From Coriobacteriia bacterium (GTDB lineage Bacteria > Actinomycetota > Coriobacteriia > Anaerosomatales > Anaerosomataceae): a DNA stretch of 24,000 bases. The position numbers were made by a program, and so were the translations under genes. The notes beneath the pieces are model-generated. The model was given only the letters and a program-made list of their open reading frames with translations. It had not been told where the DNA came from and did not search any database. Below are positions 1-24,000 of this stretch, piece by piece. The stretch lies in the NCBI GenBank assembly GCA_030652115.1, contig JAUSBK010000001.1:34254-58253 (forward strand). The letters run 5' to 3'. Each line of letters opens with the position of its first letter. Within the stretch, counting starts at the first letter, position 1.

Positions 1-1262
1 TAGTAATCGTCATCATCCTCGCGGAAGTCCCAGATCTCCGCGGCACCGTCGATGGCAAGCGGCGGGTTCTTGTACTCGGGCTGCGCCTGCCACTCGCCGT
101 AGCTGTTCGGCTCGTAGCCGATGGTGGCGCCGTAGTTGTCGTCCACGCGCATCTGCCCGTCGCGGCTGTAGCCGTGGACGGGGCAGCGGGCCGCATTCAC
201 CGGGATGAGGTAGTGGTTCACGCCGAGTCGGTACCGCTGCGCGTCGCCATAGCTGAACAGGCGGCCCTGGAGCATCTTGTCCGGCGAGAAGCTGATGCCG
301 GGGACTACGTTGCCGGGGTTGAACGCGGCCTGCTCCACGTCAACGAAGTAGTTCTCCGGGTTCCGGTTGAGCTCCATCACGCCCACCTCGATGAGCGGGT
401 AGTCGCCCTTGTACCAGACCTTGGTGAGGTCGAAGGGGTTGTACTGCATCTTCGCGGCGTCGGCCTCCGGCATGACCTGTATCTTGAGCGTCCACTTCGG
501 GTAGTCGCCCCGATCGATCGCCTCGAGCAAGTCGCGCTGGTGGCTCTCGCGGTCCTTGGCCACGATCGCCTCGGCCTCGGCGTCAGTGAGGGTCTCGATG
601 CCCTGCTGGCACACCCAGTGGAACTTCACCCAGAAGCGCTCGTTCGCCGCGTTGATCATCGAGAACGCGTGGCTTCCGAAGCCGTGCATGTGACGGTAGC
701 TCTTCGGGATGCCGCGCTCGCTCATCGTGATCGTGATCTGGTGCAGCGCTTCGGGCAGCGACGTCCAGAAGTCCCAGTTGTTCTTCGCGCTGCGCATGTT
801 CGTGCGTGGGTCGCGCTTCACGGCGCGGTTGAGGTCGGGGAAGTTGTGCGGGTCGCGCAGGAAGAACACCGGCGTGTTGTTGCCCACCAGGTCCCAGTTG
901 CCCTCCTCGGTGTAGAACTTCACCGCGAATCCGCGGATGTCGCGCTCGGCATCGGCGGCGCCCCGCTCGCCAGCAACGGTGGAGAAGCGGACGAACAGAT
1001 CGGTCGTCTTGCCGACCTCGGAGAATACCTTCGCTCGCGTGTACTTCGTGATGTCGTTCGTCACGGTGAACGTACCGAACGCGCCCGAGCCCTTCGCGTG
1101 CATACGCCGCTCCGGGATGACTTCACGATCGAAGTTGGCAAGCTTCTCCAGGTACCAGACGTCCTGCAGCAGCATCGGTCCGCGCGGACCGGCCGTCATC
1201 GCGTTCTGGTTGTCCGGAACCGGTGCTCCGAAGTTGGTGGTGAGCTTCTTCTTGTCACTCAT
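1..1262 (-). CDS. katA: Monofunctional heme catalase, N-terminal ~420 codons only (C-terminus lies beyond the window start)
   Basis: Absent from the ORF track because there is no stop codon in the window. My translation of the minus strand from ATG 1262..1260 stays open to position 1: [65 protein letters not shown]... It carries catalase hallmarks: FDRE-IPER-HAKG (distal His region), [41 protein letters not shown], and [18 protein letters not shown] (proximal Tyr region). GAAAGGGG lies upstream of the ATG. Confidence 0.93.
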
Positions 1263-1329: not shown

Positions 1330-1785
1330 TCAGGCGCTTGTCTGCGCCTCGCAGCGCCTGCAGATGCCTCTCAGATGGACATCGACCGTCTCGACCGTGC
1401 CGAACGTCGAGGTGGCACCTGCAGCTCGGACCGCGTCGAGCGCGGGATCGACGACGTCGCGGACGAGCCCGCATCGCGTGCATACGAAGTGATGGTGCTC
1501 GGCCAGGTTGGCGTCGTACCGCGCCGGGCCGGCGGTTGCAGTGACGCGTGCAACGACACCGATGTCGACGAGTGTCCCCAGAGTGCGGTAGACCGTGTCG
1601 AGCGAAACGGTCGGCACGCGGCCCCTTACCGCGTTGAAGATGGCCTCGACATCGGGGTGCTCATCGGTCGCCGCCAACTCACGCACGATCTCGAGCCGCT
1701 GGTGGGTGAGCCGAAAGCCCTGACGCCTGAGTGCGCCGGTCAGGAGTTCGACTCTGCGGGAGATCTCGTCAGGTGCAACTGACAT
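1330..1785 (-). CDS. Fur-family metalloregulator, PerR/CatR-like (peroxide role inferred from its position directly upstream of catalase)
   Basis: 151-aa ORF with a winged-helix N-terminus (FRLTHQRLEIVRELA...VSLDTVYRTL). HHHFVCTRCG and GICRRC supply two CxxC pairs, the Fur-family structural Zn site. AGGAG (1794-1798) lies 8 nt before ATG 1785. The gap to catalase on the same strand is 67 nt. Confidence 0.9.
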   Translation of the reverse strand: MSVAPDEISRRVELLTGALRRQGFRLTHQRLEIVRELAATDEHPDVEAIFNAVRGRVPTVSLDTVYRTLGTLVDIGVVARVTATAGPARYDANLAEHHHFVCTRCGLVRDVVDPALDAVRAAGATSTFGTVETVDVHLRGICRRCEAQTSA

Positions 1786-3557: not shown

Positions 3558-4472
3558 CTACTCCGCGGCGGTGACCCCGATCTGCACGAAGTAGCTGTAG
3601 ACGATGTACGGCGCGTCCGCGCCGCGCGACGGACCGACCGGGTCGACCTCGAGGATGCCCGGCATCCCGAGATCGGCCAGCAGCAGGGCCGTGACCTCCT
3701 GCGGTTCGACGGTCTCCGAGAGCTCGATCCGCACGTTGGCCGCGCGCCCGCCCGGCACGAACACCGAGCCGATCACCTCACCCGGCTCATCCGGCGTAGC
3801 GCCCCGGATCGCCACGACCCAGGAGTCCGCTGGTGCAAGCACGCGCTGAACGTCGATCGCGGTGCCGGAGTCGACGAGGAAGGCCGCACCAAGATCGGCC
3901 TCGGTGAGCCTGTAGACGAGGTCGACCATCGTGATATTCACGTGCTCGGTCACGACCACGCCGTCCGCCACGAGCGGCTTGTCGACAGGACCCGTCATCG
4001 CGGGACCACCGCCAGAGCCGCCCATGCCGCCCGAACCCATCGCCCCCCCGCCGAGCGACACCGTGTCGTCGGGATCGCCGGTGGTGTACTCGAAGGTACC
4101 GATCACGCCCTTGTCGGCAACGAGCGACACGAAGGCGCCCGCAGAGTAGTCGCGCGTGCGATCCACTGCTACAGAGACGCTGCGGTTCTCTCCTGCCTTC
4201 ACCGGTGCGGCGCCGATGAGCGCGCCAGGCGTCCCGTCGCCACGATCGGCCCGCAGGATGACCCACCCGTCCACCGGGGTCAGCACCCGATCGATCGCAA
4301 CGGCACCGTAGATCTGCTGGTCCTCCACCCGGATGACCACGTCCTCGGCCCCGACCATCACCCCGTCGGCGGGGAGTTCCCCCGATCCGTATGCGATGGC
4401 CGCCATCACGGCCACCTCCGCGATGAAGATCGCGGCCACGCCGATTCGTTTGACCGTACTCGAGACTTGCAT
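3558..4472 (-). CDS. Membrane-anchored extracytoplasmic protein with two tandem homologous domains joined by a Gly/Met-rich linker (uncharacterised; possibly DUF7282-like)
   Basis: 304 aa. N-terminal signal-anchor IGVAAIFIAEVAVMAAIAYG. Repeat 1 (about aa 37-133) and repeat 2 (about aa 167-300) share I-D--RVL-P-D-WV---R----PG--IG...L-AD-G--G--E. The linker is LGGGAMGSGGMGGSGGGPAM (nt 3990-4055). It is the last gene of the copA cluster, 27 nt after the preceding gene. Confidence 0.75.
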   Translation of the reverse strand: MQVSSTVKRIGVAAIFIAEVAVMAAIAYGSGELPADGVMVGAEDVVIRVEDQQIYGAVAIDRVLTPVDGWVILRADRGDGTPGALIGAAPVKAGENRSVSVAVDRTRDYSAGAFVSLVADKGVIGTFEYTTGDPDDTVSLGGGAMGSGGMGGSGGGPAMTGPVDKPLVADGVVVTEHVNITMVDLVYRLTEADLGAAFLVDSGTAIDVQRVLAPADSWVVAIRGATPDEPGEVIGSVFVPGGRAANVRIELSETVEPQEVTALLLADLGMPGILEVDPVGPSRGADAPYIVYSYFVQIGVTAAE

Positions 4473-4499
4473 GTGTTTGCTCTCTTCGTAGGGGTGGAC

Positions 4500-5537
4500 C
4501 TAAGGAGCCCTCACGACGATCTCACCGGACATCATGCCCATGCCGCACGTCATCGGGTATGTGCCCGGCTCGCTTGCAGGCAGAACCACCTCGGTGGTGG
4601 CGTTGGGGGCAAGCGCCACGTCAACGTCCATGCCCGGGATCACCAGGCGATCGGAGCACCCCACCGCCTCACGGCGGTCCACGATGAGCCGGACCTGTCG
4701 GTCCGCAGGCACCACCACGGTGGACGGAAAGTACTGCACGCTCTGGATCACGAGCGGCACCTCGGCAACGCCGTCGGAGGCGGTCGTGAACTCGAGCGCG
4801 GGCTCATCCGAGGTGCCGTTGAAGATGCCGAGCACCGCCCGGGAGTTGACCGGGAAGCCGGTGAGCAGCGCAGCCCGGTTCAGGAACACAAGCCCCGAGA
4901 TGATCACCACGACCGCGAGCACGATGTGGAGCCGCTGCTTCCACGTCTTGGGGATCATGCTCGACGCGGTCCCAAAGGCGAGCATGAGCGGCGCGGTCCC
5001 GAGGCCGAAGGCGAGCATCGTCAGACCGCCCGTGAGCGCACTCCCACTCGAGGCGGCCACAAGCTGAGCCGCCTGCAGCGGGGCGCAGGGCATGAGGCCC
5101 GTGAGAAGACCGAACGCAGCGGGCACGGCGAGCGTGCTCTCTCCCTGCTCGGCATCGGCTGTTGCCTTGCGCCGCAGGCGGAGAAGCGCGTTCACGAGCG
5201 CCTTTGGCGGGCGTGGCGTGAGACGCAGCGCCCAGGGGAACCGGCCGGTCATGCCGAGTCCGAGAATGATCATGAACACACCGGCGAGCGCCATCACCCA
5301 GGGCCGGATCGCGTCCACGTCAAACGCCGAACCGATGGCGCCGAGCAGGGTACCGACCGCGGCGTAGCTGAAGATCTTCGCGCCCTGGTAGACGAGGTTG
5401 GGGGCAAGTTTGCCTCGCCAGCCTGTGTCGTCGCTGCACTGCACCACGTAGGTGACCACCATCGGACCACACATGGAGAGACAGTGCACACTCGTAGCCA
5501 GCCCGAGCGCAAACGATGACACGAAGAGCGTGATCAT
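4500..5537 (-). CDS. DsbD_2 / TauE-SafE-like (HCxxMCGP) polytopic membrane protein fused to a C-terminal cupredoxin-like domain
   Basis: 345 aa. TM1 motif [12 protein letters not shown] and a second motif GLMPCAPLQ. The C-terminal 89 aa form a beta-rich domain ending [17 protein letters not shown] (a cupredoxin_1-type C-terminal loop). Its start ATG overlaps the copA stop (ATGA, 5534-5537). Confidence 0.8.
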
Positions 5538-8248
5538 GACTCGGTCCGCACGAGCGAGGGCTTGAACCGCCGGAGCAGAAGCGAGCTCGTCACCACGCTC
5601 ACGCTCGAGAGCGCCATCGCACCGCCGGCGATCTCGGGCCGCAGCAAGCCGAGCGCCGCCACCGGGATGCCGAGCGCGTTGTAGCCGAGCGCCCAGAAGA
5701 AGTTCTGGCGGATCTTGCGCATAGTCGCGCGGGAGAGCTCGATGGCCGTGACCACGTCGCGCAGGTCGTTGCGAATCAGCACGATGCCGCCGGTCTCCAT
5801 CGCAACGTCCGTGCCCGCACCCATGGCGATGCCCACGTCGGCCTGCGCGAGCGCCGGCGTGTCGTTGATGCCATCGCCCACCATGGCGACCGTGAGTCCG
5901 CGCTCCTGAAGCTTCGCGACCTCCTCGGCCTTGTGCTCGGGAAGCACCTCGGCGAGCACGTGGTCGGCGGGAATGCCGACCTGGGCGGCGATGGCCTCGG
6001 CGGTGCGACGGTTGTCGCCCGTGATCATGAAGACTTCCACGCCCATCTTCGCGAGCTGTTCGACCGCTCTGGCCGAGTTGTCCTTGAGCGTGTCGGCGAC
6101 CGCGATCATCCCCGCGAGCTTGGCGCCGCTCACGCCCACGAGCATCACGGTCTTGCCCTCACTCTCGAGCTCGCTGATGCGCTCCTCGAAGGCCGCGATG
6201 CCGATGCCTTCACGTGCCATGAGCTTGCGGTTGCCAAAGGCCACGCGGGTTCCCTCAACGCTGCCTTCAACGCCGTGGCCGGGCACCGCAGCGAAGTCCT
6301 CCACGGCCGGCAGATGCATGCTCTTCTCCTTGGCGTGCGCCACGATCGCCTCCGCCAGGGGGTGCTCGCTCTTGCGCTCGAGCGCCGCGGCGAGCATGAA
6401 GACGCGCTCGGTGTCGTGCCCCTCGGCCAGCTCGATGTCGGTCACCACGGGCTTGCCGTGAGTAAGCGTGCCGGTCTTGTCGAAGACGATAGCCTTGATC
6501 TTGTAGGCGGTCTCGAGGGCCTCGCCGCTCTTGATGAGGATGCCGTTCTCGGCACCCTTGCCCGTGCCCACCATGATGGCGGTCGGGGTTGCGAGCCCGA
6601 GCGCGCAGGGACACGCGATGACCACCACGGAGGTACCCGCGAGCAGCGCCTTGATGAACGGCGTGAGCTCGGCGTAGAAGGCGGGATCCACGAAGCGCGG
6701 CACCACGAGCAGCCACACCAGGAACGTGAGCACCGCGGCGCCGATCACCGCGGGCACGAACACCGCGCTGATGCGATCGGCGAACCGCTGCACCGGGGCC
6801 TTGGAGCCCTGCGCGTCCTCCACGAGCTTCACTATCTGTGCGAGTGCCGTGTCTGAGCCCACCTTGGTGGCGCGGAAGTGGAAGCTCCCGAGCTTGTTCA
6901 GGGTGGCGCCGATCACCGCATCGCCCACCTGCTTCTCCACGGGGATCGACTCGCCGGTGAGCATAGATTCGTCCACCGCCGAGGCGCCCTCGAGCACCAC
7001 GCCGTCCACCGGCACCTTGTCGCCAGGGCGGACAACCACGACATCGCCCACCAGGACGTCCTCAACGGGCACGTCGATCTCGGCGCCGTCTCGCACCACG
7101 CGCGCGGTCTTGGCCGCAAGGCCCATCAGCGTCTTTATGGCGTCGCTCGTGCGACCCTTCGCCCTCGCCTCGAGAAGCTTGCCGAGGATCACGAACGTGA
7201 TGAGGAGCGCGCTGGTCTCGTAGAACACCGGCTCCTCGGCAAATGCCGGAATGAACGTGGCCGCGACGCTGTACAGGTACGCTGCGCCCGTGCCGATGGC
7301 GATGAGCGTGTCCATGTTGCCGGTGCGCCGCTTGAGCGCATGCCAGAAGCCTCTGTAGAACTGCCACCCCGCGATGAACTGCACGGGAGTGGCGAGAACA
7401 AAGCCGAGGTACTTGCCGGTCGCCATGGGATCCCAGGCGCCCCCCACATTGTTGGCGAGCCACATGGCGAGCCTCGTGGGGATGCCGTCCATGAACGGCT
7501 GGAACATCATCACGAGCAGCGGGATGGAGAGTGCCACCGAGAGCACGAGCAGACGCACCTCGTGGTCGATATGGGTCTGCTGCGCCTCGCGCTGGGCGTC
7601 GCGCGCGCTCTCGCCGCCGCGCTCCTCCTCAACCCGAACGATCGCGTCGTAGCCGGCGTTGCGCACCGCCGCAACAAGATCGTCCACGCTCACCCGCGCA
7701 GGGTCGTACTCGATCGCGGCCGTCTCGGCGGCGAGATTCACGGTTGCGGAGACCACGCCGCCCACCCGGATGAGCGTCTTCTCGATCACGGCCTGGCACG
7801 ACGCACACGTCATGCCGATGATGCCGAGCGTGGCTCTGACCGCCGGACCCGTGAGCACGGGCGCAGCAAGGTCTTCGTCCACGTCGTCGGGCATCACAGG
7901 ACAGACGCCGGTCGGGCAGGCATCGGCGGTGCCGGTCTCCTGCTCGCCAGTATCCTCGGAGGTTGCCGCGCCGGGCGCCGGCTCCGCGAATTCGGCCGGC
8001 ATCTCCACCGGCTCGAGCGTCACGGCCCCGCCGCGGGGCGTGAAGCCCGCGGCCACGATCCCCGCCTCGAGCGCGGCGAGGTCCACTGCCGGATCCGCCG
8101 CAATCACTATCACGCCGGTGGCCGCGTCTGCCTTCACGTGCTCCACGCCGTCGACACGGGAGAGCTGCATGCCCACGAGCTTCTCGCACGCGCCGCAGTG
8201 CATGCCGTCGACCTCGATGCGAAACGCCTGTGATTCGGCGTGTTCCAC
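5534..8248 (-). CDS. copA: Copper-translocating P1B-1 P-type ATPase with two N-terminal HMA domains
   Basis: HMA motifs GMHCGACE and GMTCASCQ; TGES ([11 protein letters not shown]); CPC ([11 protein letters not shown]); FDKTGTLT; [10 protein letters not shown]. The track ORF runs to 8362, but that extension overlaps the ABC ATPase gene. I place the start at GTG 8248 ([13 protein letters not shown]...), 10 nt after the ABC stop and preceded by AGGGA. Confidence 0.92.
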
Positions 8249-8258
8249 GGGTACGTCC

Positions 8259-8966
8259 CTACTCGCTCGCTCGGACAGGACTCGCTGCGTGCTCCTCGGC
8301 GACGAGATGTCCCGAGGCCATCTCGATCGCACGAGTTCCGTGCGACAACAGCGCAAGCGCATGCGTGACCATCACGATCGTCACATCCGTGGAGCCGTGA
8401 ACGCTACTGAACAGCGCCATCATCTCGGCCTCGGTACGCTCGTCCAGGTTGCTCGTGGGCTCATCGGCCATGATGATACGCGGACGGTTGATGAGCGCGC
8501 GCGCAAGCACCACGCGCTGCTGCTGTCCGGCGGAGAGCTGTCGCGGAAACGCCGCAGCCTTCTCGGCGATTCCAACGAGGCGAAGCAGCTCGAGTGCCCG
8601 CTCGTCGAGGTCGAGCGCGCGCCGCTCGGCGCCGAACACGCTTGGCAGCACCACGTTCTCGAGTGCCGTGAGCGTGGGCATCAGACTCGGGAACTGGAAG
8701 ACGAAGCCGATCGCGCCGTGCCGAAGCCGGCAGCGCTCCTTGTCCGGGATGCCCCACAGGTCGGTGCCGTCGAGCCGCACCGCCCCGGCCGACGGCCTGG
8801 CGAGACCGGCCATGAGGTTCAGCAGTGTCGTCTTGCCTGAGCCCGAGCGGCCGCTGATGACCACGAACTCGCCGTCGGCGATGGCGAGACTCACGTTGTC
8901 GACCGCGGTCACGGGCGCTAGAACCTTGTCGTCGTACGTCTTCGTGACGCCCTCAAGGGTGATCAT
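8259..8966 (-). CDS. ABC transporter ATP-binding protein, MacB/LolD/FtsE-like
   Basis: 235 aa. Walker [12 protein letters not shown]-loop FVFQ, signature LSAGQQQRV, Walker [14 protein letters not shown]-loop VMVTHA. GAGGGAG lies upstream of the ATG, which is 4 nt after the permease stop. Confidence 0.92.
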
Positions 8967-8970
8967 GCGC

Positions 8971-10164
8971 TCACTCCCTCATCGCGCTCGCCGGGTCTTG
9001 CCGGCTTGCGCGGATCGCGGGAACGAGCGAGGCAAGCGTTGCCGTCACCACGGAGGCGGCGAGGCCGGCGAGCAAGAGCATCGCGAGTGCGGGCAGCGAC
9101 GGGAAGAGGAACGGCACGCCGATGCGCCCCACGATGTAGTCGTGGAAGAGGTAGGCCGCGAGCGCGGAGAACGCCGCTCCAACGAGACCGCCGGCTGCGG
9201 CCAGAAGCACCGCCTGGATCACGAGTGAGAGGACCACGTGCTCCCGGGTGGCGCCAAGCGCACGCCACACGCCGATCTCCCGGCGTCGCTCGTGCGATGC
9301 CATCGAGAACACGACCGCGATCAGCATGATGGAGAGCGCCACCGTGAGTCCGAGCACGAAGCCCAGGCCGCTGCGCAGCGTGGCGATGTGCAGCCTGAAG
9401 TCGTCGAACATCGAAGGTGCCATCACCACCCCCACATCCTGTACGCGAGTCAGGATGGCGCCGGCAACCGCGTTCGGGTCCTCACCTTCGGCCACCCGCA
9501 CGAGTATCGATGACACGCTGCTGTCCGGGATCTCGAGCGGACGTTCGGCTTCGGTCACCGACAGGCGCGCCATGTCACGCGCCGTCTCGAAGGTGAGAAA
9601 CAGGCTCTGGTCGAGGTTCCCGCCCGTGGGCTCCAGATTCGCTGCGAGCTTGAGCGGGTAGCCGTAGATCTTCAGGCCGCCCTCATCCTCCGACGCCGAA
9701 ACGAACGCGCCGCCCACCGCATCGCCGAGAGCGAGATCCTCGCCGAGCTCGCGTTCGAGCCACGGCTGCACCGTGAAGTCGGTGGCCGGGTCGAACGCCA
9801 CGATGAACATGTCGCTCACCGAGCAACACGACGCGCCCGACAGCGACGCGAGGTACATCTGCGGGCTCGCGGCCTCTACACCCGGGACCTCGCGAATCTC
9901 TTCAACCGCCGAAGCAGACATCCAGACCGTGCCCGGCGTGCCCATGAGAAGCGCACTCTCGACCCTGGCCTCGGTCCCCCGCGGCACCACGAGGAGGTCG
10001 GCCCCCAACCGCCCCTGGGTGAGCCGAAGGCTGTCGTTCGTCCCCTGCAGCACGAGGGCGGCGGCGAGCACGAGCGCCGCAACCAGCATGGCCGAGAGGA
10101 ACACAATCCAGCTGCGGAACTCGTTGCGCGCGATGTCTCTGAGCGCGAGTCGCGTGAACGTCAC
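8971..10164 (-). CDS. ABC transporter permease, FtsX/MacB type (4 TM with a large extracytoplasmic domain between TM1 and TM2)
   Basis: 397 aa with a GTG start and GGAGGG 7 nt upstream. TM1 is WIVFLSAMLVAALVLAAALVL, followed by a soluble domain of about 225 aa and then three C-terminal TMs with the FtsX-type region RRREIGVWRALGATREHV. A vicinal Cys-Cys (ASCCSV, nt 9823-9828) lies in the extracytoplasmic domain. Confidence 0.88.
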   Translation of the reverse strand: MTFTRLALRDIARNEFRSWIVFLSAMLVAALVLAAALVLQGTNDSLRLTQGRLGADLLVVPRGTEARVESALLMGTPGTVWMSASAVEEIREVPGVEAASPQMYLASLSGASCCSVSDMFIVAFDPATDFTVQPWLERELGEDLALGDAVGGAFVSASEDEGGLKIYGYPLKLAANLEPTGGNLDQSLFLTFETARDMARLSVTEAERPLEIPDSSVSSILVRVAEGEDPNAVAGAILTRVQDVGVVMAPSMFDDFRLHIATLRSGLGFVLGLTVALSIMLIAVVFSMASHERRREIGVWRALGATREHVVLSLVIQAVLLAAAGGLVGAAFSALAAYLFHDYIVGRIGVPFLFPSLPALAMLLLAGLAASVVTATLASLVPAIRASRQDPASAMRE

Positions 10165-10228
10165 TCGGGGTCCCTCCGGTGCGATCGGACATCGTCTGCG
10201 GGCGTGGCTCGCGTCACGCGTGGGAGAC

Positions 10229-10660
10229 TCAGGCTGGAGTCTCCTCTCCGGTATCGCCGCTTCCGGCCAGAGCGATAGCAGCTACGCTGAGCGCCGCAGC
10301 GATCGCGCCCAGCAGGATCAGCGACGGCTTCATGACGTTGAGGCATGTCTTGTCCATCGCACACACGCCGATGAGTTCCGTGGGAAGCGCGACGAGCGCG
10401 GCGCCGAGCAGCACGCCGATCACGCCGAGTACGCGCCGCGTCTCCTTGCGATGGCTGACGGCGAGCAGGATGCCTACAACGCCCAGGACCACTGCCACCG
10501 CCACAGAGGCGCGCGACGTCCAGTAGCACTTCATGTCGATCTGCCGGCCATCCTTGGTCGTGATGAAGAGGCCCTCAGCAGTGCAGTTGTTCGTTACGGG
10601 GATGACCACCGCGAGCACAGCTACCACCAGAAGCGCGATGCCGAGCACCTTCATGACCAT
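10229..10660 (-). CDS. Small 4-TM membrane protein with four cysteines in the two predicted outward loops (DUF4418-like)
   Basis: 143 aa. GGGAG lies 6 nt upstream of ATG 10660. There are four hydrophobic segments, and HRKETRR between TM2 and TM3 fixes the topology (positive-inside rule). C26 (NNCTAEG) and C45 (MKCYWT) fall in loop 1; C100 and C106 (GVCAMDKTC) fall in loop 2. The family name is from memory of DUF4418 architecture, not from a search. Confidence 0.7.
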   Translation of the reverse strand: MVMKVLGIALLVVAVLAVVIPVTNNCTAEGLFITTKDGRQIDMKCYWTSRASVAVAVVLGVVGILLAVSHRKETRRVLGVIGVLLGAALVALPTELIGVCAMDKTCLNVMKPSLILLGAIAAALSVAAIALAGSGDTGEETPA

Positions 10661-10757
10661 GGAATACTCCCTTTCGATCGACAGCCATGCGGAAGTCCGC
10701 GCTCAAGAGTTGCGTGCGGGGTTCGTTGGTGCGCTCACGGACATGCGTGGTTACTCG

Positions 10758-10774
10758 ATACCCGTCGGCGGTAG
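10758..10774. promoter_or_regulatory. Imperfect CsoR-type operator-like repeat ATACCC-GTCGG-CGGTAG about 100 nt upstream of the first gene of the copA cluster
   Basis: One half-site matches ATACCC/GGGTAT perfectly and the other matches 4/6 (CTACCG on the minus strand). It shares the GATACCC core with the perfect palindrome at 11995-12010 and lies in the only sizeable intergenic region upstream of the cluster. Confidence 0.3.
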
Positions 10775-10785
10775 GGCCGTAAACG

Positions 10786-11994: not shown

Positions 11995-12010
11995 ATACCC
12001 ATAGGGGTAT
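11995..12010. promoter_or_regulatory. Perfect inverted repeat ATACCC-ATAG-GGGTAT, a CsoR/RcnR-family-type operator candidate, overlapping a TATATG -10-like hexamer (12008-12013)
   Basis: Read directly. It lies 40 nt upstream of the preferred heliorhodopsin start (12050). This is an A/T-flanked C-tract/G-tract palindrome in a locally AT-rich patch. Confidence 0.5.
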
Positions 12011-13941: not shown

Positions 13942-14062
13942 GCGCGGGTTACTCCCGCGGGGCGAGCACGCGAGCGACGTTCAATGTGCGTACATGCAGG
14001 CGCCTGCGGGCAGAAACGCCCTAGGGGCTAGCCGAGGCATGGACGCTCGCGGAGGTCACCCG

Positions 14063-16129
14063 ATGAACGAGCACACCGGACACGGAGAACAGGCGCGCGC
14101 GGACCACAGCGGCCACGACACGCACGGTGGTGGCGGGGCGATGCCTGCGGCCCACGACCGCCATGAGGGCCACAGCGCTGCGATGTTCCGCAGCCGTTTC
14201 TGGCTCTCGCTCGCGCTCACCGTACCCACGGTCATCTGGTCGGAGGCCGTCCAGCACCTGCTCGGCTATTCGGCGCCCGCCTTCCCCGGCTCGGCGTACG
14301 TGCCGGCGGTCTTCGGGACGATCGTCTTTGTCTACGGCGGGCTGCCGTTCCTCAAGGGCGCTCGCAACGAGCTCCGCGACCGGCTGCCGGGGATGATGAC
14401 GCTCATCTCGCTCGCAATCGGCGTGGCGTTCGGCTTCAGCCTCGCGGTCACGCTCGGCGTGCCGGGCATGGACCTGTGGTGGGAGCTCGCGACGCTCGTG
14501 ACGATCATGCTCCTCGGCCACTGGATCGAGATGCGCTCGATCGCGCAGGCCCAAGGCGCTCTCGCGGAGCTGGCGAAACTGCTGCCCGACACCGCCGAGC
14601 GGATCGGCGCCGACGGCTCGGCCGAGCAGGTGCCAGTCTCGGCGCTCACGGCGGGCGACCTCCTGCTCGTTCGGCCGGGCGCACGTGTGCCGGCCGACGG
14701 CGAGGTGGCCGAGGGCGAGAGCACGCTCGACGAGTCGATGATCACGGGAGAATCCCGGCCGGCGAGCAAGGCCGCGGGTGATGCGGTGATCGCCGGCACC
14801 GTGAACGGCGCCGGGTCGTTGCGTGTGCGCGTGACGCGCACCGGCGAGGACACCGCGCTCGCCGGCATCATGCGACTCGTGGCGGGCGCACAGGCGTCGC
14901 GCTCGCGCGCGCAAGACCTCGCGGATCGCGCGGCCAGGCTCCTTACGTTCGTGGCGATCGGGTCCGCGGTGATCACCGCCGTGGCCTGGTGGCTCGTCGG
15001 CGCCGAGTGGACGTACACCGTCGAGCGCGTGGTGACCGTGCTCGTGATCGCATGCCCGCACGCGCTCGGCCTGGCCATCCCGCTCGTGGTCGCGATCTCC
15101 ACGACCCTCGGCGCGCGCAGCGGGCTGCTCGTCCGCGACCGGCGCGGGCTTGAGGAGGCGCGGCTGATCGACACGGTTGTCTTCGACAAGACCGGCACCC
15201 TCACGCTCGCCGAGCACCGCGTGGTTGACGAGGCCTACGCTGAGGGCGTCGACCCGGCAGAAGCGCTCGCGCTGGCAGCCGCCGTGGAGGGCGACTCCGA
15301 GCACCCTGTGGCGCGCGCGATCATCGCGCGAGCCGCCGAGAAGAGCGCCCGGCCTCTGCACGCGAGCGGGTTCGAGGCGCTCCCGGGCCAGGGCGTGCGT
15401 GCGAGCGTGGAGGGCCGCAAGATCGCCGTCGGCGGTCCGGCGCTGCTCGACGCGCTCGACCTCGAGGTCCCGCCCGCACTCGAGGAGGCACTTGCCCGCT
15501 CGGCCGCAGCAGGACGCTCGGCGGTCTATCTGGTGGATGGCGACACGGTGCTGGCTCTGTTCTCCGTCGCCGATGCGGTGCGTCCCGAGTCGCGCGAGGC
15601 GATCGACCGCCTGCACGCCATGGGTATCGATACGGCCATGCTCACCGGAGACGCGGAGCCCGTGGCGCAAGCGGTGGCTGCCGAGCTCGGCATCGACCGC
15701 GTGCTCGCCGAGGTGCTTCCGGCCGACAAGGCGCACGAGATCGAGAAGCTGCAGGCGGGCGGCATGCGCGTCGCGATGGTGGGCGACGGTGTGAACGATG
15801 CGCCGGCGCTTGCGACCGCCGATGTGGGAATCGCGATCGGCGCCGGCACCGAGGTGGCGGTCGAAGCCGGCGACATCGTGCTCGTGCGCTCGGACCCGCG
15901 CGATGTGGCCTCCATCGTCTCGCTCAGCCGCGCCACCTACCGGAAGATGGTGCAGAACCTGTGGTGGGCGGCCGGGTACAACATCGTGGCGATACCACTA
16001 GCCGCCGGGCTGCTCGCTCGCTGGGGAATCGTGCTCTCCCCCGCCGTCGGCGCGGTGCTCATGTCGGCAAGCACGGTGATCGTGGCCGCCAACGCACAGC
16101 TGCTACGGCGGTGGCGCCCCGAAAGCTGA
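14063..16129 (+). CDS. copB: Copper P-type ATPase of the His-rich, CPH-motif class (P1B-3, CopB-like)
   Basis: No HMA domain. The N-terminus is His-rich: [34 protein letters not shown]. It has TGES (MITGESRP), CPH ([12 protein letters not shown]), FDKTGTLT and [10 protein letters not shown]. The start is set at ATG 14063 with GGAGG (14051-14055) 7 nt upstream. Confidence 0.9.
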
Positions 16130-21793: not shown

Positions 21794-21896
21794 GAAGGGG
21801 AGTAGCTGCCCGGCGTCGCAGCCGGGAGGCAGGCCGTCATCACGGGCATCCCGGCCCCGGCCCTGCTGCGCGGAACACCTCGCGTGCGAGACCTTC
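21794..21896 (+). promoter_or_regulatory. yybP-ykoY (Mn2+-sensing) riboswitch-like aptamer in the leader of the P2-type ATPase gene
   Basis: P1 is GAAGG (21794-21798) paired with CCUUC (21892-21896). The hallmark conserved strings are GGGGAGUAGC (21797-21806) and GCGAGACCUUC (21886-21896), compared with AAAGGGGAGUAGC ... GCAAGACCUUU in characterised members. There is a GC hairpin at 21806-21832 and a hairpin GCGCG-N8-CGCGUGC just before the 3' conserved string. The element ends 41 nt before the ATPase ATG. Confidence 0.7.
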
Positions 21897-21937
21897 AGGA
21901 TCGTTCGTGTCCTGACCCGCTGCGCACAGGAGGATGC

Positions 21938-24000
21938 ATGTCCAAACGGATCCCGCTCGACCCCGCGTCTCTCGACGGGGCCTTCGTCGTCGAAGCGGCA
22001 CACACCGTCCCCGCCGACGAGGTCCTCTCCCATCTCGCCAGCACGCCCGATGGCCTGACTGCCGATGAAGTCGCGCGGCGTCAGGAAGCGGTGGGCCCGA
22101 ACGAGCTTCCCGAGGGCGAGAAGCGCACCATCCCCGCGATGATCCTGGACCAGTTCAAGGACTTCCTTATCCTGCTGCTCCTTGGCGCGGCTGTGATCTC
22201 CGGAGTACTCGGAGAGTTGGCCGACACCATCGCCATCCTCGTGATCGTCATCCTGAACGCCGTCATCGGTGTGGTGCAGGAGTTCCGCGCCGAGCGCGCG
22301 ATGGAAGCACTTCGCGAGATGGCCGCCGAAACCGCCACTGTGCGCCGCGACGGTGTGGCCGCTGACGTACCCGCCGCCGACCTCACCGTCGGCGACATCG
22401 TGCTGCTGGACGCCGGGCGTGTGGTGCCCGCGGACCTGCGGCTCATCGAGTCGGCCGGCCTGCGCGTGGCCGAGGCGGCACTCACTGGCGAATCGCTGCC
22501 GGTGGAGAAGTACACCGAGGCCGTCGAGGGCGCCGACTCCCCCATCGGCGACCGCTCGAGCATGGCCTACCGCGGCACGCAGGTCGTCTACGGCCGTGGC
22601 GTGGGCGTCGTGACCAGCGTGGGTCTCGCAACCGAGCTCGGCAAGATCGCCCACCTGCTCGGCTCGACGGGCGACGTCAAGACGCCGCTGCAGAAACGGC
22701 TCGCGCAGTTCAGCAAGCAGCTCGGCCTGGCCGCCCTCGGGCTCTGCACGATCGTCTTCATCGTCGGCATGGTCCAGGGCGGCGACATGCTCGAGATGTT
22801 CATCACCGCCGTAGCCCTGGCGGTGGCCGCCGTGCCGGAGGCGCTGCCCGCGGTGGCGACCATCTCACTCGCCCTCGGCGCAAGCAGGCTCGTGAAGACC
22901 AACACGCTCGTCCGCAAGCTGCCGGCCGTGGAAGCGCTCGGCTCGGTCACCTACATCTGCACCGACAAGACCGGCACGCTCACGCTCAACAAAATGACCG
23001 TGGAGCACCTCGCCGCTGGCGACGCACAGACGATTGCCACCACAGCACTCGACGGCAGCGGCGAGGGTCTCACGTGGCTCGGCCGTGCGCTCGCACTCTC
23101 GAACGACGTCACCGGTAGTGACGACGCGCTCGTGGGCGACCCCACCGAGATCGCCTTCTATCGCATCGCCGCCGAGAACGGCTTCATCCCCGCCACGCTC
23201 ACCGCCGAGCTGCCGCGCTCGGCCGAGGTGCCGTTCGACTCGGACCGCAAGCTCATGACCACCGTGCACACGCTGCCCGACGGTGGGTACGTGTCGTTCA
23301 CCAAGGGCGCCGCCGAGGCGATCCTCGAGCGCTCGCGTGAGGCAATCGCCGCCGATGGCGCTCCCGTCGCACTCGACACCGACGCATCGTCCGCGCTGGT
23401 AGACAGCTGGTCGGCCGAGGGGCTGCGCGTGCTCGCGTTCGGCATGCGGCGTCTCGACACGCTGCCTGAGGACGGCAACATCTCCGCACTCGAGCAGGAT
23501 CTCACGCTCATCGGCTACACGGGCCTCGTCGACCCGCCCCGCGAGGAGGCGCGCGAGGCGGTAAGCACCTGCAAGACCGCCGGCATCATCCCGGTGATGA
23601 TCACCGGCGATCACCCGGCCACCGCGCTCGCGATCGCCAAGCGCCTCGGCATCGCGGACCACAAGGAGCAGATGATCACTGGCGTCGAACTCGACGCGCT
23701 CTCGCTCGAGGACTTCGAGGGCCGCGTGGAGGGCATTCGCGTGTACGCGCGCGTGGCGCCCGAGCAGAAGCTCAAGATCGTCCAGGCGCTTCAGGACCGC
23801 GGTGAGTTCGTGGCGATGACCGGCGACGGCGTGAACGACGCACCCGCGCTCGCCACCGCCGATATCGGCGTGGCGATGGGCATCACCGGCACCGACGTGG
23901 CCAAGGAGGCCGCCTCGATGGTGCTGTTGGACGACAACTTCTCCTCGATCGTGTCGTCGGTCCGCGAGGGTCGCCGCATCTTCGACAACATCCGCAAGTT
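21938..24000 (+). CDS. P2-type cation-transporting P-type ATPase (Ca2+/Mn2+-ATPase-like), first 687 codons; continues past the window end
   Basis: Absent from the ORF track because there is no stop codon in the window. My translation from ATG 21938 (AGGAGGA at 21928-21934) reads MSKRIPLDPASLDG...LTADEVARRQEAVGPNELPE (cation ATPase N-terminal domain), ALTGESLPVEK, AAVPEALPAV (TM4), [24 protein letters not shown] and [22 protein letters not shown]. It stays open to position 24000. Confidence 0.9.
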   Translation, partial: MSKRIPLDPASLDGAFVVEAAHTVPADEVLSHLASTPDGLTADEVARRQEAVGPNELPEGEKRTIPAMILDQFKDFLILLLLGAAVISGVLGELADTIAILVIVILNAVIGVVQEFRAERAMEALREMAAETATVRRDGVAADVPAADLTVGDIVLLDAGRVVPADLRLIESAGLRVAEAALTGESLPVEKYTEAVEGADSPIGDRSSMAYRGTQVVYGRGVGVVTSVGLATELGKIAHLLGSTGDVKTPLQKRLAQFSKQLGLAALGLCTIVFIVGMVQGGDMLEMFITAVALAVAAVPEALPAVATISLALGASRLVKTNTLVRKLPAVEALGSVTYICTDKTGTLTLNKMTVEHLAAGDAQTIATTALDGSGEGLTWLGRALALSNDVTGSDDALVGDPTEIAFYRIAAENGFIPATLTAELPRSAEVPFDSDRKLMTTVHTLPDGGYVSFTKGAAEAILERSREAIAADGAPVALDTDASSALVDSWSAEGLRVLAFGMRRLDTLPEDGNISALEQDLTLIGYTGLVDPPREEAREAVSTCKTAGIIPVMITGDHPATALAIAKRLGIADHKEQMITGVELDALSLEDFEGRVEGIRVYARVAPEQKLKIVQALQDRGEFVAMTGDGVNDAPALATADIGVAMGITGTDVAKEAASMVLLDDNFSSIVSSVREGRRIFDNIRK

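Follow-up and report, generated by a model that had tools for sequence, protein, structure and literature searches.

A DUF4418-FtsX-ABC module adjoining a CopA unit in a Coriobacteriia bacterium and its probable part in copper handling outside the cell

Introduction

Copper handling outside the membrane of Gram-positive-type and anaerobic bacteria, and the metal supply of secreted cuproenzymes there, are poorly understood; to our knowledge, the known extracytoplasmic systems (CusCFBA, CueO, PcoC/CopC and NosDFY-NosL) are all from Proteobacteria. In NosDFY-NosL, an ATP-binding cassette (ABC) system powers the delivery of copper to a secreted cuproenzyme by a Cu(I) chaperone that is tethered to the membrane. 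The pneumococcal copper chaperone CupA is cytoplasmic, and we know of no member of the type VII, or mechanotransmission, class of ABC systems that handles a metal ion. Here we describe a six-gene cluster in a 24,000-nt stretch of DNA from a Coriobacteriia bacterium (contig JAUSBK010000001.1; the whole stretch is called the window), in which a module comprising a DUF4418 membrane protein, an FtsX-type permease and an ABC ATPase adjoins a predicted copper-exporting ATPase, CopA. The window is GC-rich (ca. 67 %) and belongs to a genome of 2.38 Mb that is 98 % complete.

In Campylobacter jejuni, an FtsX-type ABC system of unknown substrate is required in the iron-uptake cluster FetMP-FetABCDEF (PMC10783030), and CsoR-regulated copA operons that include COG2836 (DsbD_2) proteins were deduced by metagenomic inference in gut Firmicutes (PMC4938975). 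A full-text literature search did not find any FtsX/MacB-type system linked to copA, multicopper oxidase (MCO) or nosZ genes, nor any mention of DUF7282, another of the families encoded here, and the only mention of DUF4418 was in a transcriptome table, adjoining an ABC permease in Bifidobacterium. An earlier note on this DNA had stated that a MacB-type/DUF4418 system coupled to copA was not a described one; the search found no such description either, and the module probably represents a mode of copper handling outside the cell that has yet to be described.

The six-gene cluster

The cluster spans positions 3558-10660 of the window and all its genes lie on the minus strand, in the following order from the DUF4418 gene; the domain calls for all six proteins were above the Pfam cut-offs.

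10661-10785, minus strand: non-coding leader, 125 nt, between the stop codon of a methyltransferase gene and the DUF4418 start
10229-10660, minus strand: DUF4418 membrane protein, 143 aa (PF14387, 65.4 bits, E 7e-18)
8971-10164, minus strand: MacB/FtsX-type permease, 397 aa (PF02687, 66 bits; PF12704, 28 bits)
8259-8966, minus strand: ABC ATPase, 235 aa (PF00005, 120 bits, E 1.5e-34)
5534-8248, minus strand: predicted P1B-1 CopA, 904 aa (E1-E2_ATPase, Hydrolase and two HMA domains)
4500-5537, minus strand: DsbD_2::Cupredoxin_1 fusion (PF13386, 150 bits, E 1e-43; PF13473, 54 bits, E 2e-14)
3558-4472, minus strand: anchored protein with two DUF7282 domains, 304 aa (PF23951, 68.5 bits, E 7e-19, in two stretches)

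From the DUF4418 gene to the double DUF7282 gene, the intergenic gaps are 64, 4, 10, -4 and 27 nt; open reading frames, strands and spacings all agree with what the earlier note had reported.

Copper genes near the DUF4418-FtsX-ABC module

Loci were gathered with a DUF4418 profile from GTDB species (80 loci), together with nine phylum loci and metagenome contigs; the scan used a narrower DUF4418 alignment, the broad one being too divergent. Neighbours were scored by phmmer with queries from the window and from Pfam-verified loci, and clades were taken from a tree of the FtsX permeases (76 rows), so that they are defined by sequence and not by neighbours. The window fell in a clade with an SH-like approximate likelihood ratio support (SH-aLRT) of 100, mostly from Chloroflexota plus Actinomycetota, Gemmatimonadota and Acidobacteriota; the tree also contained a Bacillota-centred clade and a gut-type clade. 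An MCO, CupA-like, CopA or DsbD_2 gene was present within 6 kb in 38 of the 43 loci of the window's clade whose flanks were long enough for evaluation, a count inflated by kinship, though partners and gene orders differ, whereas the same was true for only 2 of 33 loci from the other DUF4418 clades, both of them weak matches to a non-catalytic part of a giant protein. The proposed link of the DUF4418/MacB-type module to copper is thus borne out for this clade.

The usual partners in the clade are secreted MCOs and membrane-anchored CupA-like proteins. MCO genes, of at least four unrelated types, occurred in 31 of the 38 copper-linked loci, and copA in only eight. A position downstream of CopA, as proposed in the earlier note, does not hold as a general rule. 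The architectures found included the following:

MCO, anchored CupA-like protein, small lipoprotein, DUF4418, FtsX, ABC
CupA-like protein, DUF4418, FtsX, ABC, Met-rich protein, Tat-type MCO
MCO pairs with DUF4418, FtsX, FtsX, ABC
DUF4418, FtsX, ABC, DsbD_2, CopA (loci L028, L029 and L051)
DsbD_2, CopA, MCO, CupA-like protein, DUF4418, FtsX, ABC (locus L046)

Since CopA appears in three gene orders (the window's group, L028/L029/L051 and L046), it was recruited at least three times, and in the FtsX tree the window's group nests among loci of the MCO/CupA type. Where copA or a DsbD_2 gene adjoins the ABC gene, the stop-start spacing is 10 nt or the genes overlap.

A same-strand gene for an anchored protein of 225-250 aa with a very high Met content was found in 11 loci of the clade. 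This family (L037:12330-13004, L047:12292-13035 and nine more loci) has long tracts rich in Met, Gly and Ser (MGMGCMGTMGGMG...) and no Pfam match, and its gene lies between the ABC gene and the gene for the Tat-type MCO. Additionally, small beta-rich lipoproteins or anchored proteins are encoded directly 5′ of DUF4418 (L006:9267-9926, L018:2952-3458, L024:249-746 and others); the small lipoproteins and the 165-aa proteins of loci with two FtsX genes are homologous (hhalign probability 89 %, E 2e-6) and belong to no Pfam family. The possibility that the DUF7282 protein of the window is a homologue of these lipoproteins was discarded (hhalign probability 0.1).

In the Bacillota-centred sister clade, the module is situated directly behind iron-uptake genes resembling FTR1-P19-FtrD-FetBCD. 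Loci L070-L076, L081 and L092 contain genes for FTR1, P19 (PF10634), an FtrD-like protein, two FtsX permeases and an ATPase, followed by a second, DUF4418-FtsX-ABC module; an example of this FetMP-FetABCD-like arrangement is that of Clostridium aminobutyricum (L074:4017-12307). No partner was found for the gut-type clade.

The four cysteines of DUF4418 and the Cys113-Cys114 pair of the permease were invariant, or nearly so, in all clades, whether linked to copper genes or not. The six cysteines, predicted to face outwards, are thus a feature of the family and not one specific to copper, and they indicate a thiol-based chemistry on the outer side. Being equally conserved in clades with no copper neighbours, they do not on their own identify copper ligands.

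The DUF4418 protein, the permease and the ATPase

The DUF4418 protein clearly belongs to its family (65.4 bits against a gathering score of 27), with four helices and four conserved cysteines. Its AlphaFold2 (AF2) model has a mean confidence (pLDDT) of 94 and places the helices at residues 2-23, 44-68, 72-96 and 105-134. Among 47 aligned homologues, C45, C100 and C106 were invariant and C26 was present in at least 90 %. The modeled helices and the charge distribution predict that the basic loop 69-76 is cytoplasmic, so that C26 and C45 would flank outer loop 1 and C100 and C106 outer loop 2. No fold in the PDB matched the model below an E value of 0.3, and a DsbB/VKOR-like oxidoreductase was discarded as a candidate identity, there being no significant fold match (best VKOR match, E 2.4 and TM-score 0.37).

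The permease has an ectodomain of ca. 210 residues between transmembrane helices (TM) 1 and 2, which carries Cys113-Cys114. In its AF2 model (pLDDT 84; helices 15-53, 254-292, 307-339 and 357-387), the cysteine pair lies in a loop modeled with low confidence and flanked by two long ectodomain strands. The top Foldseek matches were LolCDE, MacB, Spr0694-0695, HrtBA and YtrEF, with E values as low as 6e-15 (1e-11 to 6e-15 for LolCDE, MacB and HrtBA), and further fold matches were YbbAP, BceAB and FtsEX. The protein also has four TM, a MacB_PCD ectodomain (PF12704, 28 bits against a cut-off of 27) and a C-terminal FtsX domain. The likeness of the model to LolCDE, MacB and their kin indicates that this is a type VII, mechanotransmission-type ABC permease. 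It does not belong to any of the named equivalogs LolC/E, MacB, FtsX or DevC (e.g., 47 bits with the lolCE model, whose cut-off is 362), and since all NCBIfam matches were far below their cut-offs, it constitutes a separate subfamily. A search returned 894 homologues at E<=1e-20; the best 120 of these 894 were almost all exactly 397 aa long, and both C113 and C114 were invariant in 60 permease sequences. Natural DUF4418::FtsX fusions were also sought, and none occurred among the best 120 of the 894 homologues; apparent fusions in L026, L054 and L065 correspond to frameshifted long-read assemblies.

The ABC gene starts 4 nt 3′ of the permease gene, as expected for a cognate ATPase. The best NCBIfam models for its product were LolD, FtsE, DevA and MacB, all under their equivalog cut-offs, and its motifs are intact (Walker A, GSGKTT; signature, LSAGQ; Walker B, IIMADEP; and the H-loop).

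The CopA, DsbD_2::cupredoxin and DUF7282 proteins

CopA scored 620 bits with TIGR01511 (cut-off 397) and 676 bits with TIGR01525. It contains CxxC motifs at residues 18 and 148, TGES at 431, CPC at 546, DKTGT at 590 and GDGIND at 791. The phosphorylation site, the TGE motif and a HAD-type nucleotide domain (E1-E2_ATPase plus Hydrolase) are those of a P1B ATPase, and the metal-site signature is complete, with CPC 546, N-x6-YN-x4-P at 849 and M-x2-SS-x5-S at 878. These motifs identify the product, which carries two HMA domains at its N-terminus, as a putative Cu(I)-exporting P-type ATPase of the P1B-1 group.

The DsbD_2 domain of the fusion has six TM, with H18, C19 and C23 in TM1 and C151 in TM4, that is, the six-TM core with conserved cysteines in TM1 and TM4 that characterizes DsbD/CcdA; judging from its residues, the H/M/C-rich motif in TM1 would also suit a metal path. 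Loops 1, 3 and 5 contain 13 Lys and Arg residues and the N-terminus with loops 2 and 4 contains one, as counted on the six helices modeled by Pfam, because the hydropathy scan that supplied the charge data missed TM2. This balance and the number of helices place the CupA-like domain, by prediction, on the outside, and the topology reported for DsbD/CcdA is the one predicted for the fusion. The cupredoxin domain is similar to CupA of Streptococcus pneumoniae (4F2E/2MRY; phmmer E 1.9e-6), and C294, C331, M333 and M335 align with the Cu(I) ligands of CupA (C...CxMxM); the domain thus combines a cupredoxin fold with the Cys...Cys-x-Met-x-Met set. It does not share with CupA the single N-terminal anchor and the cytoplasmic location from which CupA hands Cu(I) to the N-terminal domain of CopA, since it is anchored by the six-TM DsbD_2 domain and predicted to lie outside.

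The DUF7282 protein has a single TM (residues 10-28) preceded by K8 and R9, which predicts an anchor with its N-terminus inside. Its two DUF7282 domains are joined by a Gly/Met linker, of whose methionines the orthologues keep only part, and a sequence search of the PDB returned matches to the Gly-rich linker only. That the Cys and Met sites would be on the outer face, as had been anticipated, is therefore upheld as a topology prediction for DUF4418, the permease, the fusion and the DUF7282 anchor.

Composition and distribution in Coriobacteriia

The cluster is composite, with the usual cop unit of the order plus an accessory DUF4418-FtsX-ABC triplet. The DsbD_2::cupredoxin fusion was present in 62 of ca. 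66 sampled Anaerosomatales genomes, often in two copies, and CopA, the fusion and the DUF7282 protein together are the usual cop unit of this order, so that this half is ordinary for the order. Conversely, a DUF4418 match above the curated cut-off was obtained in only 5 of the 151 genomes sampled from the class and in 10 of the 401 from the phylum, and in none of three genomes of the same genus. In congeners G504 (L109) and G428 (L110), the flanks that border the six genes enclose instead two unrelated genes in 2.9 kb, with products of ca. 330 and 560 aa that both have hydrophobic N-termini; in G408, the third congener, there is no methyltransferase flank, and the spermidine-synthase-like gene lies near the Dus gene.

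The same six genes occur in the same order in other genera, in the metagenome contigs L004/L005 and L017 and, split over two contigs, in G420 (JASEEU01), with 65-74 % identity for DUF4418 between the window and these relatives. The arrangement is therefore not due to chance, and the genes travel as a block, in agreement with the conservation that the earlier note had expected. In G420, L004/L005 and L017 the block occupies a different chromosomal site, between purine-biosynthesis genes, and follows a gene for a cell-wall-bound MCO of 1365-1380 aa that ends in a GC-rich hairpin.

The genome of the window encodes an orthologue of this giant MCO on contig C13 (C13:81589-86070, plus strand; 1493 aa). 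The product carries a signal peptide of the Sec type, and the four copper motifs of MCOs are all present (HLHGG, HDH, HPIHFH and HCHILSHEEMDMM); its C-terminal repeats read YRFYN..G.HFYTAS. The giant MCO was found in 35 of the 151 genomes of the class, 32 of them without DUF4418, and G462 and G499 have DUF4418 and no giant MCO. These phylogenetic profiles led us to reject, for this order, the view that maturation of the giant MCO strictly depends on the triplet.

A second cop unit, with no DUF4418, FtsX or ABC gene, is found in the same genome (C3:96676-101700, minus strand). It comprises a small Cys-rich anchored open reading frame and genes for a DsbD_2 domain fused to two CupA-like cupredoxins, a CopA with two HMA domains and a lipoprotein with one DUF7282 domain. 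The small Cys-rich product contains CTMPDCDD...CSDFKPACDECPD, and the linker of the C3 fusion contains ACACCGG.

Other metal- and stress-related genes lie in the window outside the cluster. The gene at 13994-16129 (plus strand), 3.3 kb from the cluster, codes for a CopB/P1B-3-type ATPase (711 aa) in which the N-terminus is rich in His and the transmembrane motif is CPH, and a third P-type ATPase gene in these 24 kb, of type II (Cation_ATPase_N), is cut by the window end (21884-23998, plus strand). A catalase gene (3-1262, minus strand) lies beside a gene for a Fur-family, possibly PerR-like, regulator (1330-1785, minus strand), in a lineage described as anaerobic.

Transcription and translation signals

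The 125-nt leader is the only sizeable non-coding stretch and the one place where a promoter could lie for the cluster, whose six genes we presume to be co-transcribed; at the other end, a convergent gene lies 26 nt from the 3′ end of the cluster. The promoter scan did not identify any promoter-like site in the cluster nor any match to the sigma-70 consensus in the leader, and the terminator scan returned two terminator-like matches, no more than those obtained with shuffled sequences. Internal promoters or terminators splitting the cluster were likewise discarded, as the scans gave none beyond the shuffle level.

The stop codon of copA and the start codon of the fusion gene overlap in ATGA, the sole true overlap among the five junctions, and a purine-rich, Shine-Dalgarno-like stretch precedes each of the six starts. 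The cluster had been described as translationally coupled: this holds strictly for the CopA/fusion junction alone, because only there do the genes overlap, whereas the other four junctions are short gaps in which the following gene has its own Shine-Dalgarno-like stretch. The start of copA is a GTG; a longer frame, from an ATG at 8362, would overlap the ABC gene.

A weak, degenerate CsoR-like site (ATACCC-N5-CGGTAG) at 10758 was dropped as a candidate operator, having no counterpart upstream of the orthologous clusters. The only CsoR-family gene of the genome is on contig C7 (C7:202878-203234). Four perfect ATACCC-N4-GGGTAT palindromes were found in the genome, at C1:31402, C5:46248 (position 11995 of the window), C6:137819 and C7:201890; the last is ca. 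1 kb downstream of the CsoR-family gene, and none of the four is at either copA cluster. A 14/16 match to this palindrome (C13:81484) is situated ca. 100 nt upstream of the giant MCO gene.

Discussion

It appears likely that the DUF4418-FtsX-ABC module has some part in handling copper outside the cell. How it would do so is less certain, and our preferred reading, which we put forward tentatively, is a Cu(I) relay on the outer face that is driven by ATP and coupled to export by CopA, serving copper tolerance in this genome. The cluster would be a copper unit that moves laterally and consists of two parts. In the first, CopA would pump cytoplasmic Cu(I) outward, and the six-TM DsbD_2 domain would hold the CupA-like domain on the outer face, where Cu(I) would be taken on its Cys2/Met2 site; DsbD_2 might keep the thiols of this domain reduced, as CcdA does, or might itself conduct Cu(I), and the DUF7282 protein would act as an envelope partner. 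In the second, an FtsX dimer, the ATPase and the obligate four-Cys DUF4418 protein would form a type VII machine in which, as in LolCDE, MacB and HrtBA, no substrate would cross the membrane; rather, ATP-driven movements of the ectodomain would shift a thiol-bound substrate on the outer face. The substrate we infer, Cu(I), would move between the cysteines of DUF4418 and the Cys-Cys loop in the ectodomain, and CupA-like proteins and MCOs would receive or donate it, the direction of transfer being as conjectural as the physiological role. Vicinal Cys pairs handle Hg(II) in MerT and MerA, which fits a soft-metal relay. In this organism, the net role would be to raise tolerance to copper by removing Cu(I) from the membrane surface once it has been exported. 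We favour tolerance because the block is a mobile accessory, present in 5 of the 151 genomes of the class, that duplicates the cop unit already resident on contig C3, lies 3.3 kb from the gene for a CopB-type (CPH, His-rich) ATPase and arrived without an oxidase gene. Several observations weigh against the relay: the chemistry of the six cysteines need not be copper-specific, as they are equally invariant in clades with no copper neighbours; CopA is missing from most loci of the window's clade; MCOs need O2, and the hosts are mostly anaerobes; and we found neither a copper-sensing regulator gene nor a conserved operator at the cluster.

A close rival to tolerance, plausible although we hold it to be somewhat improbable, is that the same machine delivers copper to secreted cuproenzymes. 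CopA would then supply cytoplasmic Cu(I), the outward CupA-like domain would be the chaperone and the module would power, with ATP, the insertion of copper into a Sec-exported MCO, as a functional analogue of what NosDFY-NosL, the precedent for such a role, does for N2O reductase. The prevalence and diversity of MCOs in the copper-linked loci of the clade, the giant MCO gene directly upstream of the cluster in sister genomes and the orthologue encoded on contig C13 all speak for delivery, as does the position of the sister clade behind iron-uptake genes, which is not a detoxification context; P19 is itself a copper-containing protein. On the other hand, the mismatch between the profiles of the giant MCO and DUF4418 in the class indicates that the module is not required for this oxidase, the cluster in the window arrived without an MCO gene, and the CopA encoded here has the two-HMA architecture of efflux pumps. 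A wider version of delivery, that the module represents a new type VII class of ATP-driven copper insertase or relay whose six invariant outward cysteines hand Cu(I) on to secreted cuproproteins (MCOs, P19 and possibly NosZ), is possible but doubtful; it would operate in hosts that have no confined periplasm or where free copper is vanishingly scarce, as a counterpart of NosDFY-NosL for a wider set of enzymes, with the CopA clusters as the copper source.

It is unlikely that the cysteines do redox work instead of carrying metal, with DsbD_2 bringing electrons out and the DUF4418 and FtsX cysteines keeping envelope thiols reduced or repairing disulfides formed by copper catalysis, much as in the Scs (suppressor of copper sensitivity) system or FetBCD-FetEF. 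DsbD_2 does keep the TM1 and TM4 cysteines of CcdA/DsbD, DUF4418 has four TM with two cysteines per outer loop, the cysteines are invariant whatever the neighbours, and FetBCD, an FtsX-type ABC system, was proposed to support a redox relay (PMC10783030). Nevertheless, most of the clade's loci contain neither a DsbD_2 nor a thioredoxin gene, DUF4418 does not resemble DsbB or VKOR in its fold, and it is hard to see why electron transfer would need a mechanotransmission ABC system. Still less probable, to the point that we give it little credence, is that the ABC module is not related to copper and exports or senses a peptide, lipid or cell-wall compound, its association with copper genes reflecting merely the clustering of envelope-stress genes. 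The substrates of type VII systems are indeed very diverse, and other DUF4418 clades (gut Bacillota, Bifidobacterium and Eggerthellaceae) show no copper neighbours; but this is difficult to reconcile with the contrast between 38 of 43 and 2 of 33 loci in clades set by sequence, with copper partners and gene orders that vary across four phyla, and with the 10-nt spacings or overlaps that join the ABC gene to copA or DsbD_2 genes.

The module is well defined, with hundreds of 397-aa permeases that are more than 50 % identical across phyla, each accompanied by a fixed four-Cys partner. If the relay exists, it would be a new energy-dependent step in copper homeostasis, tracking MCOs, CupA-like chaperones and CopA, and would provide a testable role for DUF4418, DUF7282 and the DsbD_2::cupredoxin fusions.

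Among the known systems, the cluster resembles CopY-CupA-CopA of S. pneumoniae in combining a putative P1B-1 CopA with a membrane-tethered, cupredoxin-fold Cu(I) chaperone whose Cys...Cys-x-Met-x-Met ligands align. It differs in its CupA-like domain, which forms one protein with a six-TM DsbD_2 domain and is predicted to face outward, in having no CopY, and in the CopA of the window, which has HMA domains and not a cupredoxin metal-binding domain. The likeness to NosDFY-NosL, in an ABC-driven extracytoplasmic transfer of copper, is functional only: NosY is of the ABC-2 type and works via the beta-helix protein NosD, whereas the permease here is of the FtsX type, and Pfam identified no NosD-like gene among the six genes of the cluster. 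The copA operons of gut Firmicutes also encode DsbD_2-family membrane proteins with copA (PMC4938975), but those proteins have HMA domains and are encoded behind CsoR operators, where the cluster has a cupredoxin and no operator was found. The Fet cluster of C. jejuni shares FtsX-type permeases and an ATPase beside P19 and Cys-rich membrane or redox partners, and departs from it in its FetB/FetC heterodimer and in containing no DUF4418, CopA, MCO or CupA. Finally, MacB, LolCDE, HrtBA, FtsEX, BceAB and YbbAP have in common with the window's system a four-TM permease, an ectodomain between TM1 and TM2 and a separate ATPase, and presumably mechanotransmission; the module described here is set apart from these type VII systems by its fixed four-Cys DUF4418 partner, the Cys-Cys loop of its ectodomain and its copper-protein neighbours.

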